A stretch of 64,000 nucleotides of DNA, taken from contig JBIOHP010000005.1 of NCBI GenBank assembly GCA_044449065.1, forward strand, positions 107,374 to 171,373. The letters run 5' to 3'. Position numbers and translations under genes: made by a program. Below the pieces are notes generated by a model. It was not told the DNA's origin. It did no database searches and was given only the letters and a program-made list of their open reading frames with translations. This DNA is from Bacteroidota bacterium. Lineage in GTDB: Bacteria > Bacteroidota > Ignavibacteria > UBA10030 > SZUA-254. This document shows, in pieces, positions 16,090 through 61,003 of the stretch; position 1 is the first letter of the stretch, and every line of letters begins with the position of its first letter.

Positions 16090-16236
16090 TCATAAATTAA
16101 CAATAATAATATGAACGAGATGAATCTCGTTCTACAAGTTACTTTTTGGGTGCCCCCACTTCGATCTCAAGTGATAAAGTCACTCTTGCACGAGACTTCG
16201 TCTTGCGCTACATTTTTCTAGGCGGTCATGGTCCAC

Positions 16237-16355
16237 GAGTCTGTCCGAGAACTCGTAGTAGCGGGTCACCTGACCCGCGCCCATGCCCAATTGGATTCGA
16301 AATAGCCGCCGATCTGGTGATCGGCTACTACAAAACATGGTTCTCGGACAGACTC
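16237..16355. mobile_element. MITE-like 119-bp element with perfect 16-bp terminal inverted repeats, inserted inside another palindromic repeat
   Basis: Terminal inverted repeats GAGTCTGTCCGAGAAC / GTTCTCGGACAGACTC. Internal nested palindromes GCGGGTCAcCTGACCCGC and TAGCCG..CGGCTA. It interrupts the 16221..16410 copy of the repeat seen uninterrupted at 13210..13278. No ORF. Confidence 0.55.
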
Positions 16356-16476
16356 CCACACCATGACCGGGATAAAATGAAAAGGTGTCATGAAATGATT
16401 CATGACACCCTGGCATGGTGCCAATTGCCAGAATAACGACAAACACTGTAGTATTCATTGGAAATTATTCCTAGTG

Positions 16477-30222: not shown

Positions 30223-31509
30223 ATGACAGTGGAACCATCGATACAATTACAGGAAGAGAATAACCGGCTGCGTAAGGCAGTGCAGGAGTTATCGGTCCTG
30301 AACGATCTCGCGCGCGATATCAGCTCAACCATGAGTCTTGACGAGGTGATCCAGAATATCGTCAAGCGGTCGGTGCGCGCCCTCCATTGCCAGCAGGGCA
30401 CCATTACGCTCGTCAACGAAGAGGTGCGCGATGAAATGAAAACATTCATCCGCACCAACGATTCCACCGCCAACCATGAGCAATTTCATCTCAATCAGAA
30501 CATCCTCGGCTGGATGATGCTGAATAAAAAACCGATGGTCTCGAACGACATCAGCACCGACGCGCGTTTTCAGGGCATTAAGGTCGATTCGGGCATGAAG
30601 TCGATCCTCTGCGTTCCCCTCCTCATCAAAAACGCCCTGATAGGTATCCTGACAGTTTTTAATAAAAAAGATAATACGGAATTCGGCGAGGATGATAAGC
30701 GCCTGCTAGCGATTATTGCCGCGCAATCGGCGCAGGTGTTGGAAAATGCGCGTCTGTACGACCAGGAGAAGAGCTTACTTGCCATGCAGGAACAGATGAA
30801 GCTTGCTCAAAAAATCCAGTACGATCTTCTCCCTAAAAAATCTCCGGAAATCCCCGGCTTTGATATCGTGGGAGCCACGTTTCCGGCTCAATCAATAGGC
30901 GGCGATTATTTTGATTTTATTCCGTTAGAATCCCAGCGGTGGGCGATTTGTCTCGGCGATGTTACCGGCAAAGGATTGCCGGCTTCATTATTGATGGCAA
31001 ACGTGCAAGCGACATTGCGCGGGCAGGCAATCGTCAGCACGCCGCCAAGCGAATGCCTTTCCCGCTCGAACCGGCTCCTGTACGACAGCACCAGCCCGGA
31101 AAAATTTGTGACCCTTTTTTACATCGTCATCGATCCGAACAATGATCACGTGGTGTTTTGCAATGCGGGACATGACCATCCGTATCTCCTAACCTCGACG
31201 GATCAAATTATCCGGCTGAAGACCGGCGGTCTCATGCTGGGAATTATGCCGTCGTATCCGTTCAAAGAAGAAACCATTTCATTCAAACCCGGAGATACGC
31301 TGGTGATGTATTCCGACGGCGTTCCCGAGGCAAGGAATAATGTCGGCGACTTCTTTGGGGATGAAGCGCTAGAAAAAATATTAATCGAACACCGATCACA
31401 ATCACCCGCTCATATTCTTAGTTCTGTTATCGAAGCCGTGAAGAAACATGCGGGAACCCATCCGCAATCGGACGATATTACGATCGTTGTCATAAGACGG
31501 ACTCCCTAA
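30223..31509 (+). CDS. GAF-domain-containing PP2C-type (SpoIIE/RsbU family) serine phosphatase
   Basis: N-terminal GAF-like region. PP2C/SpoIIE motifs GDVTGKGLPASLLMANVQATLR and MYSDGVPEA. Confidence 0.8.
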   Translation: MTVEPSIQLQEENNRLRKAVQELSVLNDLARDISSTMSLDEVIQNIVKRSVRALHCQQGTITLVNEEVRDEMKTFIRTNDSTANHEQFHLNQNILGWMMLNKKPMVSNDISTDARFQGIKVDSGMKSILCVPLLIKNALIGILTVFNKKDNTEFGEDDKRLLAIIAAQSAQVLENARLYDQEKSLLAMQEQMKLAQKIQYDLLPKKSPEIPGFDIVGATFPAQSIGGDYFDFIPLESQRWAICLGDVTGKGLPASLLMANVQATLRGQAIVSTPPSECLSRSNRLLYDSTSPEKFVTLFYIVIDPNNDHVVFCNAGHDHPYLLTSTDQIIRLKTGGLMLGIMPSYPFKEETISFKPGDTLVMYSDGVPEARNNVGDFFGDEALEKILIEHRSQSPAHILSSVIEAVKKHAGTHPQSDDITIVVIRRTP

Positions 31510-31736
31510 AAATCAAGAACTCCAAATCAGTTCCCCGCTGAAGTAGTCCCCTCCCCCGCCCGCCGTTAGTATCAAGGTTCAGTCTGAACCGGCGGGAAAG
31601 TTGAAATCTTTCTTCCACTCCATTTATTACCCGCTATTACACTTTAAGAATAATTTAATGAGGGAGATTACGAATAGTTAATCTCCTATGTTGAATAATT
31701 TCAAGAACCTAAGTTGTTCACCGACGAATCCCTTCT

Positions 31737-31863
31737 CTAGCAGGGTGTTGAAAAAGTATCGAATTAGGACGGGTCATTCCGAACTTGTTTCGGAATCTGT
31801 TCATTTTTAGACCCTGAAACAAGTTCAGGGTGACTCGGATTGGGTTTTTCAACACCTTGCTAG
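31737..31863. repeat. 127-nt composite palindromic element (MITE-like, or a structured RNA)
   Basis: 19-20-nt terminal inverted repeats, CTAGCAGGGTGTTGAAAAAG / GTTTTTCAACACCTTGCTAG, with one G-T position. They enclose two internal hairpins, ATTCCGAA-cttgt-TTCGGAAT and CCCTGAA-acaag-TTCAGGG, whose loops are complementary to each other. Confidence 0.55.
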
Positions 31864-32141
31864 TAAGCAAAAAATAGATTCCCACATCCCTTGGAATTCT
31901 TCATACTTCTTGTTAGATTTCAGACATAATCCTCTGATTTATAAAGATTTATAGCATCATTCAACAAGATACCGGACGCTCGACCTTATAATTGACGCAT
32001 CAACACTAAGCAGGATGTGCCAAATAAGATAGTTACAGGGCAATAGTTGCCCTCGTTACCCTGAAAGATCGTTAAAACATTCGAAACGAATAGAGTAAAA
32101 GTGGGGTTTAATATCAGTGTAACGATTAAGGAAGTATTGTT

Positions 32142-32900
32142 ATGTACATGAGATTGGTTGAAATGAAAGTTGATCCGGTAAAATTACCGGAAATGCGGGA
32201 ATTCTACGAACGGACGGCAATTCCCGCCCTTCATGCGGTGAGAGGATGTTTGTTCGCAACTCTCATACAAAGCAATGAACATATCGGAGAGTGCATATCA
32301 ATGACGCTATGGAATACTCAAGCTGAGGCGGAAGAATATGGGAAAAGCCGCATCTATTCAACCCTTGCAGAGAAGATTCGAACGTATTTATCCCATTCCA
32401 ATGAATGGAAAATTGAGCTTTCAAAAGATTTAACACTTGAAATGGTTCCAATACTTGAAGAACCTATTGTGAAATCGTATCCAATAGGAGCATTTGAAAA
32501 TGGGATAAACACGCCATCCGATACGCCGCAATTATTATACGTCAGGATAGTTGGACCTAAAATTCGACAAGGCATGTTGGAGGAATTCAAACAAATTTAT
32601 GCGAGGGAAATATTGCCTGTCTTAAAAAAAGTGCGCGGCTGCCGCTATGCTTTTGTTACCGTGGGTGGAAAAGATAAATCCGACGTCATGTCGGTGACGG
32701 TCTGGGATAGCCAAGCTGCCGCTGACGAGTACGAGGCAAGCGGACTCTTCGATCAGTTAAAAGAAAAGTTGATGCACACCTTCACAGAATTATACCAATG
32801 GAAAATGGGTCTCGATAAAGACACGGATACAAAAACTTTCACAAGCGACGATATGACCGTGAAACATTATCAAGTGGTTACGGGCGAAAGCTTCCGGTAG
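32142..32900 (+). CDS. tandem ABM (antibiotic-biosynthesis-monooxygenase-like) domain protein
   Basis: Internal duplication: residues ~1-110 and ~135-250 share ...PEMREFYERTAIPALHAVRGCLFATL...MTLWNTQAEAEEY versus ...LEEFKQIYAREILPVLKKVRGCRYAFV...VTVWDSQAAADEY. Confidence 0.6.
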   Translation: MYMRLVEMKVDPVKLPEMREFYERTAIPALHAVRGCLFATLIQSNEHIGECISMTLWNTQAEAEEYGKSRIYSTLAEKIRTYLSHSNEWKIELSKDLTLEMVPILEEPIVKSYPIGAFENGINTPSDTPQLLYVRIVGPKIRQGMLEEFKQIYAREILPVLKKVRGCRYAFVTVGGKDKSDVMSVTVWDSQAAADEYEASGLFDQLKEKLMHTFTELYQWKMGLDKDTDTKTFTSDDMTVKHYQVVTGESFR

Positions 32901-60658: not shown

Positions 60659-61003
60659 ATGCCTTACGGACATCAACTTTTAACTCTCATCAAGCAATCG
60701 GATACCATGGATCGTGTTTGCAAAGATCGGCTGCAATCAGGCGATTGGATGCTCATCCAAACCCGGAATTCACGCTACTCTATTCATATTGGCGGCGATG
60801 GCTGGTGTGAGATATCAGGGGGATGGTTCGATAGGAAGGGAAAATCACACGCGAGAGTTCGGATAAACGGATGCACCTGGGGCGGCTCGGCGATCAATTT
60901 ACAGGTTGCGGCTGCGTGCGGACTTTGCATTGAATTCAGCAACCGCGTTGTAACAAGTCCCATACAACGGATAATTTTCTTTCCCGGGTTCACGATGAAT
61001 TAA
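60659..61003 (+). CDS. hypothetical small protein (114 aa)
   Basis: Clean ATG ORF with a strong terminator immediately after it (61034-61069). No recognisable motif. Confidence 0.45.
   Translation: MPYGHQLLTLIKQSDTMDRVCKDRLQSGDWMLIQTRNSRYSIHIGGDGWCEISGGWFDRKGKSHARVRINGCTWGGSAINLQVAAACGLCIEFSNRVVTSPIQRIIFFPGFTMN

Follow-up and report, generated by a model that had tools for sequence, protein, structure and literature searches.

We analysed a 64-kb stretch of DNA, hereafter the window, from an uncultured Bacteroidota metagenome-assembled genome (MAG; assembly GCA_044449065.1, contig JBIOHP010000005.1, positions 107,374 to 171,373), in which a short element with inverted arms and two inner hairpins lies between a GAF-SpoIIE phosphatase gene and an ABM-domain gene. 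Both genes are on the same strand, and the spacer between them is 632 nt long and low in G+C (0.37-0.42). This bears out an earlier reading of the locus (the original prediction), which had placed the element between the phosphatase gene and an ABM/kinase block. Positions refer to the window, and L-numbers are labels of matched loci outside it.

The terminal arms had been described as 19-20-nt reverse complements with one G-T position. We observed that they (31737-31755 and 31845-31863) are 19 nt long and complementary at 18 of 19 positions, the sole exception being G31743 opposite T31857. The two predicted inner hairpins with loops CTTGT and ACAAG are likewise present, and both have perfect 8-bp stems. 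Their loops are complementary because the hairpins are inverted copies of one repeat unit with the loop CTTGT. When up to three mismatches were allowed, the arm 19-mer occurred at two places in the window, compared to a shuffle expectation of 0.02, and two matches were reached in 0 of 100 dinucleotide-preserving shuffles. The predicted RNA fold of the element reaches -66.4 kcal/mol on the plus strand (z -10.8 versus shuffles) and -51.6 kcal/mol on the minus strand (z -10.1), while the 119-nt body folded as DNA gives a z of -6.1 and the unit A DNA hairpin -6.5 kcal/mol (z -2.9). Dyad symmetry of the whole unit, as originally proposed, is therefore present beyond chance. It is imperfect and has a direction: three compensatory pair changes distinguish the hairpin stems, and the spacers measure 16 nt versus 9 nt. 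Two features had gone unrecognised, namely that the inner hairpins probably correspond to a described class of CGTC-tagged repetitive extragenic palindromic (REP) sequences and that the terminal CTAG is a duplicated target.

Table 1. Parts of the element and the genes on either side of it (window coordinates).
Feature	Position	Strand	Remarks
Left target-site duplication copy, CTAG	31737-31740		Same CTAG at 31860-31863
Left terminal inverted repeat CAGGGTGTTGAAAAA, 15 nt	31741-31755	+	Match to IS5-family ends
Left spacer GTATCGAATTAGGACG, 16 nt	31756-31771		Aligns with left spacer of L199, loosely with the 130-nt family
REP hairpin unit A, probable CGTC type	31772-31799	+	Tag GGTC, loop CTTGT, tail CTG
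Unit A stem ATTCCGAA/TTCGGAAT	31776-31783 / 31789-31796	+	Perfect 8 bp, loop CTTGT
Linker TTCATTTT between hairpin units	31800-31807		Length and sequence variable in the family
REP hairpin unit B, probable CGTC type, inverted relative to A	31808-31835	-	Tag AGTC, loop CTTGT, tail CTA
Unit B stem ACCCTGAA/TTCAGGGT	31811-31818 / 31824-31831 (+ coordinates)		Perfect 8 bp; + strand loop ACAAG
Right spacer CGGATTGGG, 9 nt	31836-31844		Kept in L199 (CGGATTGTT); A-rich in the 130-nt family
Right terminal inverted repeat, reverse complement CAAGGTGTTGAAAAA	31845-31859	-	One mismatch to left repeat
Right target-site duplication copy, CTAG	31860-31863		Pairs with CTAG at 31737-31740
GAF-SpoIIE phosphatase gene	30223-31509	+	Upstream of the element
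ABM-domain gene	32142-32900	+	Downstream of the element; Ser/Thr kinase-PD40 gene next

The terminal repeats match the ends of IS5-family insertion sequences. An exact-match scan for CTAGCARGGTGTTGAAAAA, with one genome per species, found the repeat and its adjoining CTAG in at least 120 loci (L001-L120) from more than 15 phyla. The hosts include Chloroflexota, Nitrospirota, Spirochaetota, Ignavibacteriae, Planctomycetota, Myxococcota, Fibrobacterota, Verrucomicrobiota, Acidobacteriota, Actinomycetota, Binatota, Dormibacterota, Nitrospinota and several proteobacterial classes. Among the matches listed, 84 elements were obtained by pairing a repeat with its inverted partner, about 70 of them 49-407 nt long and 14 of them 1.1-1.5 kb. 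The repeat CAGGGTGTTGAAAAA with its CTAG is identical to the ends of transposase-encoding elements of 1.25-1.5 kb. In three long elements tested, the open reading frames (ORFs) encode 363-427 aa with DUF772 and DDE_Tnp_1 domains, and the same three transposases score 206-249 bits against the NCBIfam model transpos_IS5_4 (cut-off 140). They are 40-51% identical to one another, though their ends agree. The annotated plasmid relatives ISMch8, ISDisp1 and ISAzs10 all belong to the IS5 family and have ends of the same pattern. The short elements listed have only their ends, roughly 20 nt, in common with the window element. A tblastn search of the 64-kb window with the three cognate transposases gave nothing with E below 1, and the element is therefore non-autonomous; its body is only 119 nt long and was taken as non-coding.

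Several further observations concern these ends. Among the matches listed, the exact 19-mer CTAGCAGGGTGTTGAAAAA is kept at transposon ends in more than 15 bacterial phyla, and many of its matches lie at contig ends, as expected of assembly-breaking repeats. Two minimal elements of 49-52 nt (L069:1270-1318 and L088:3184-3235) consist of little beyond two terminal repeats back to back and could be either the smallest transposable shells or solo palindromic relics. On the Sinorhizobium meliloti megaplasmid pSymA, a 909-bp element (L122:1501-2409) has the same terminal repeats and lacks any intact transposase ORF; found conserved in many S. meliloti megaplasmids, it is apparently a decayed IS5-family copy.

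To define the extent of the element, we turned to its relatives. JGI metagenomes were scanned for the inner half of the terminal repeat followed by a hairpin unit within 8-30 nt, which returned 33 loci with 18 distinct elements of 118-132 nt that align with the window element over their full length. The 18 elements have a common layout of repeat, spacer, hairpin 1, linker, hairpin 2, A-rich spacer and repeat, with roughly 11 to 28 nt of variable sequence between the two stems. The closest sibling (L199:568-685) is 88% identical to the window element and lies at an unrelated locus. Homology to L199 stops at 31733 and 31863, so that the two are the same element at different loci. Perfect direct 4-bp repeats stand just outside CAGG... 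in 9 of the 18 distinct copies, compared to about 0.07 expected by chance, and the non-palindromic duplications comprise TCAA, TTGA, TGAA, TAAG and GAAA. One copy in a Spirochaetes MAG stands between TTAG...TTAG, its four siblings between CTAG...CTAG. From these 4-bp duplications and the contrast between the TTAG and CTAG siblings, it follows that the element proper is the 119 nt at 31741-31859 and that the CTAGs outside it belong to a target-site duplication and not to the inverted repeat. IS5 of Escherichia coli makes 4-bp target duplications of the motif YTAR (PMC5009759), and the window CTAG is read as a duplication because it agrees with IS5 in both length and motif. The spacers are conserved in copies with different flanks, which indicates that the composite moves as one unit.

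We also considered whether hairpin dimers are general to short elements with these ends. This was rejected: in a strict scan of about 70 other short same-end elements, a GTC-hairpin dimer was found only in L034 besides the window copy. The combination of shell and dimer is therefore one lineage of miniature inverted-repeat transposable elements (MITEs) and not a general property of these ends. By eye, two other elements with the same ends contain inverted, longer TGTC-tagged hairpins, GTCATTCCGA...GAGGAATC in an Ignavibacteriae MAG (L007:3002-3173) and GTCATTGCGAG...GAAGCAATC in a Nitrospirota MAG (L114:3480-3629). Their stems are longer and imperfect, and the strict scan gave them no score; they hint that REP-like dimers got into IS5-type shells more than once. 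A full-text literature search for the hairpin and terminal-repeat sequences returned no paper, and by this route we could not find the element family described.

The inner part of the element also occurs independently of the terminal repeats. When plasmids were searched with the whole element, the inner part alone matched. A 62-nt match recurs at 9-10 places per plasmid in Treponema saccharophilum, and an exact 25-mer of unit B is present in Sphingobium, Sphingomonas and Novosphingobium plasmids. The degenerate unit GTCAYYCYGAACTTGTTTCRGRRTCT has exact matches in 55 viral-contig loci. In their 52 distinct contexts, 155 of 156 variable stem pairs are Watson-Crick, compared to about 101 expected if the two sides were independent; 40 of the 52 contexts are intergenic and 5 have a terminal-repeat-like 10-mer nearby. 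Tblastn for IS5-type transposases gave no match in the plasmid, viral and metagenome loci L123-L212. One intergenic region of T. saccharophilum plasmid pTS1 (L123:900-1140) holds at least five CGTC-type units in alternating orientation, an arrangement like that of bacterial interspersed mosaic elements.

Published CGTC REPs have a terminal CGTC tag, often TGTC (variants TGTC, CCTC), an 8-9-bp stem with A and T first, a 4-5-nt loop and a short tail that is mostly CCA (PMC3733652). They are mostly inverted dimers, with heterodimers in families CGTC-2 and CGTC-3, and have been reported from Proteobacteria, Chlorobi, Bacteroidetes, Spirochaetes and Thermotogae (PMC3733652). The units of the window element have stems of 8 bp and loops of 5 nt and form an inverted dimer with tags outward and stems that differ at three pairs. 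The stem of unit A starts with AT and that of unit B with AC, as does the matching unit of Novosphingobium aromaticivorans, a species named as a CGTC-2 host (PMC3733652). The dimer of N. aromaticivorans reads CGTC-ATGCTGAA-CATGT-TTCAGCAT-CCA ... TGG-ACCCTGAA-ACAGG-TTCAGGGT-GACG. Its unit with the unit B stem ACCCTGAA has tag CGTC, tail CCA and loop CCTGT, its partner is the ATGCTGAA unit, and this stem pair, ATGCTGAA with ACCCTGAA, is that of hairpins 1 and 2 of the MITE family. The window units are tagged GGTC and AGTC; the family consensus has TGTC, and CGTC occurs in L199, L183 and the Sphingobium and Novosphingobium counterparts. A CCA tail is found in the sphingomonad copies; the window tails are CTG and CTA, and those of the family CT(A/C). 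Judged by these sequence features, the inner units are probably CGTC-tagged REPs of family CGTC-2.

Taken together, these data make it highly likely that 31741-31859 is a 119-nt non-autonomous IS5-type MITE with a CGTC-REP heterodimer as its core. A MITE was one of three options in the original prediction, and it is supported by the IS5-family ends, by relatives at unrelated loci with 4-bp duplications and by distant relatives that have the same gene neighbourhood without the element. The element would have entered the spacer between the phosphatase gene and the ABM gene at a CTAG that was duplicated in the process, and its 15-bp terminal repeats would be the ends that a clade of IS5-family DDE transposases recognises. 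A transposase of this kind, whose gene lies elsewhere in the genome or was present in the past, may have bound both ends in trans, excised or copied the element and joined it to the target at a 4-bp staggered cut. The cargo would be two CGTC-type REP hairpins with tags outward, a palindromic repeat that is widespread in its own right. We infer that the REP heterodimer entered the MITE shell once and was then carried passively as a unit: either a shell captured the dimer, or the dimer inserted into a minimal palindromic shell like the 49-52-nt L069 and L088.

Some observations weigh against this interpretation. The right terminal repeat has one substitution, and only one copy was found in the 64-kb window, with no further terminal repeat. 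CTAG is palindromic, and this locus by itself does not separate it from a longer inverted repeat; reading it as a duplication depends on the relatives. No empty site was found, the relatives' loci (55-57% ABM identity) being too distant to align across the junction. In addition, the hairpins are absent from the subterminal 130 nt of six sampled full-length insertion sequences; the element is therefore no simple internal-deletion derivative of these six, and we rejected that origin for them.

The architecture of the core raises the question of whether a different kind of transposase was involved. REP doublets forming hairpins (REPINs) comprise two inverted REP hairpins with a short spacer, can form one long hairpin and are regarded as non-autonomous mobile units (PMC3337134). 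The core of the window element is built in the same way, from an inverted pair of tagged hairpins a short distance apart (PMC3733652; PMC3337134). The element might then be a REPIN-like dimer moved by a single-strand HUH/Y1, RAYT-like transposase, with the outer CAGG...GAAAAA as a palindromic target or co-opted flank. In favour of this, the dimer also exists without terminal repeats, in L159 (89% identity to the window core over 62 nt) and L129 (84% over 73 nt), and REP dimers nested in longer palindromes are known from Anabaena variabilis and Halothiobacillus neapolitanus (PMC3733652). Even so, we regard a REPIN-like origin as quite improbable. Y1 transposition (IS200/IS605 family) is not known to leave a target duplication. 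Here, direct 4-bp duplications adjoin the terminal repeats on the outside, and copies with different flanks agree in the spacers that separate repeat from hairpin. REPIN hairpins have a 5' GT[AG]G tag, which RAYTs recognise, and are linked to a RAYT gene (PMC6006769). The hairpins of the window element are instead tagged (N)GTC, as GGTC and AGTC, and the mobile unit is bounded by DDE-type repeats with duplications. CGTC REPs, moreover, "apparently lack a dedicated transposase", and no RAYT has been reported flanked by CGTC units (PMC3733652).

Next, we determined which structure is conserved, using a covariation test on the 18-sequence family alignment with 500 shuffles. Pairing reaches 97-98% in the two local hairpins, which show compensatory changes; the observed covariation was reached by 0 of 500 shuffles. 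Variation is seen in the stem of unit A (column 42/54: CG 9, UA 8, UG 1; column 40/56: GC 14, UA 3), and the stem of unit B is nearly invariant across the family. A single long hairpin, formed by pairing hairpin 1 with hairpin 2, was rejected: it is 82% paired, shows no compensatory change, and has three positions unpaired in 15-17 of the 18 sequences. Since the local hairpins are conserved and the long one is not, the twofold symmetry is a by-product of inverted ends and an inverted REP dimer, and the feature under selection is not the near-perfect long hairpin seen in the window copy.

These results bear on the two other options of the original prediction, a protein-binding palindrome and a structured RNA, neither of which gained support. 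The element could in principle be a host regulatory feature, such as a terminator or insulator that works in both directions, a hairpin that stabilises mRNA, or a large palindromic operator. It occupies a 632-nt spacer between two same-strand genes, its predicted RNA structure is very stable, and hairpin A followed by the T-rich CTGTTCATTTTT was scored as terminator-like on the coding strand by a terminator scan. REPs and MITEs have also been reported to influence termination and mRNA stability (PMC3733652). Against a regulatory origin, the same architecture is present at many unrelated loci with target duplications, and the whole-element hairpin lacks compensatory support. When 31000-32600 was scanned against Rfam with E allowed up to 10, only snoRNA and miRNA noise below threshold appeared, the best Rfam 15 matches being SNORD46 (17.5 bits, gathering 40, E 1.5) and mir-3613 (15.4 bits, gathering 91, E 8.3). 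Relative to genes, free hairpin units have no preferred orientation (after gene 3' ends, 9 point the same way and 13 the opposite way), and a role at the RNA level is therefore unsupported. The loci of two distant relatives, with ABM identities of 57% (the nearest homologue outside the source) and 55%, have neither the terminal repeats nor the hairpin units, and one of the two retains the gene order phosphatase, ABM. The element is thus no conserved feature of the phosphatase/ABM locus. We consider a host regulatory feature very improbable, and any regulatory effect would be secondary to insertion. An effect on the neighbouring genes is possible, the terminator-like appearance of hairpin A with its T-rich tail on the coding strand being the one hint. 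Chance formation of a palindrome in AT-rich intergenic DNA has the low spacer G+C in its favour and nothing more, and is refuted by the 0 of 100 shuffles with two 19-mer matches, fold z values of -10 to -11 and hundreds of related sequences elsewhere.

Two other inverted repeats lie upstream of the element in the same spacer. The first (31559-31596), located 50 nt past the phosphatase stop codon, forms a hairpin with a GC clamp, CCCGCCG...CGGCGGG, and inner GGTTCAG/CTGAACC. The arms of the second (31649-31700) are 22 nt long and 73% complementary. Each is a candidate for the native phosphatase terminator; the terminator scan marked neither. In the relative L218, a 115-aa gene of unknown function (L218:2613-2960) stands between the phosphatase and ABM genes. 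Its window homologue (60668-60985, 51% identity) is about 28 kb away, which points to local rearrangement of the neighbourhood.

We then compared the element with known systems. Like the IS5-family MITEs BrickBuilt and MITEPgRS of Porphyromonas gingivalis (ISPg1/ISPg4 ends) and ATR of Neisseria (ISNme1 ends), it is short and non-coding. These MITEs have only their terminal repeats of 12-15 nt in common with IS5-family insertion sequences, around an unrelated interior that is repetitive or structured, a relation described for P. gingivalis (PMC4596501). For BrickBuilt_4, comparison of filled with empty sites confirmed a 4-bp duplication, GAAA (PMC4596501). The ISPg4 end GAGACTGTTGCA (PMC4596501) resembles the GAGACTGTTGAAAAA end of family member L209. 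The window element differs from these MITEs in its repeat, CAGGGTGTTGAAAAA, in its cargo of a CGTC REP heterodimer instead of a minisatellite, and in its host, an uncultured Bacteroidota MAG. With IS5-family insertion sequences that have CAGG(G/C)TGTTGAA(A/G)AA ends (L046, L055, L092; ISMch8, ISAzs10, ISDisp1), whose transposases exceed the transpos_IS5_4 cut-off, it shares identical or near-identical repeats and CTAG flanks. Unlike them, it is 119 nt long, encodes no transposase and bears no likeness to their sampled subterminal regions.

Its core resembles CGTC-2 REPs (PMC3733652) in the (N)GTC tag, the 8-bp stem starting with A, the 5-nt loop, the short unpaired tail and the inverted heterodimer. 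It departs from them in its tags (GGTC/AGTC) and tails (CTG/CTA) and in that the dimer is enclosed by transposon ends and duplications, which is undescribed for CGTC-2. Typical REPs are high-copy; within the 64-kb window the unit pair of the element is the sole one, and no other GTCA hairpins of its type were found there. A published parallel to an enclosed dimer is that of H. neapolitanus, where CGTC-1 dimers regularly lie inside a 41-bp palindrome, GGGaaGCTT-GAAAaACC...GGTaTTTCgAAGC-gCCC, that was not found without the dimer and was not read as transposon ends (PMC3733652). This palindrome contains ...TTGAAAAA..., and its likeness to the IS5-type repeat of the window extends over about 9 nt, by eye. 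The earlier paper mentions REP dimers in outer palindromes without a tie to transposon ends (PMC3733652).

Locally, the MITE marks a past insertion and at most adds a strong hairpin to a read-through transcript. More broadly, one transposon end of 15-19 nt, exact across more than 15 phyla, has seeded many lineage-specific MITEs. We tentatively suggest, while thinking it rather doubtful, that IS5-type shells let DDE transposases move CGTC REP dimers within or between genomes. If so, such shells would be at least one mobilisation route for repeats reported without a dedicated transposase, and could explain earlier accounts of CGTC dimers regularly lying inside outer palindromes, as in H. neapolitanus. 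It is also possible that minimal palindromic MITEs are preferred targets, with REP dimers inserting at their centre. A composite with DDE-type ends and duplications makes one route for the spread of CGTC REPs directly testable.

Finally, the window contains a second, unrelated inverted-repeat element of 147 nt (16223-16369), with 30-nt arms that are 87% complementary (CGGTCATGGTCCACGAGTCTGTCCGAGAAC and its inverted partner). It had no match in viral contigs or plasmids. The element lies between two larger ORFs on the minus strand, is overlapped by two small ORFs of 92-96 aa and is preceded by CTAG. Its DNA fold has a z of -9.5 with two internal GC hairpins, and it may be another MITE-like element.

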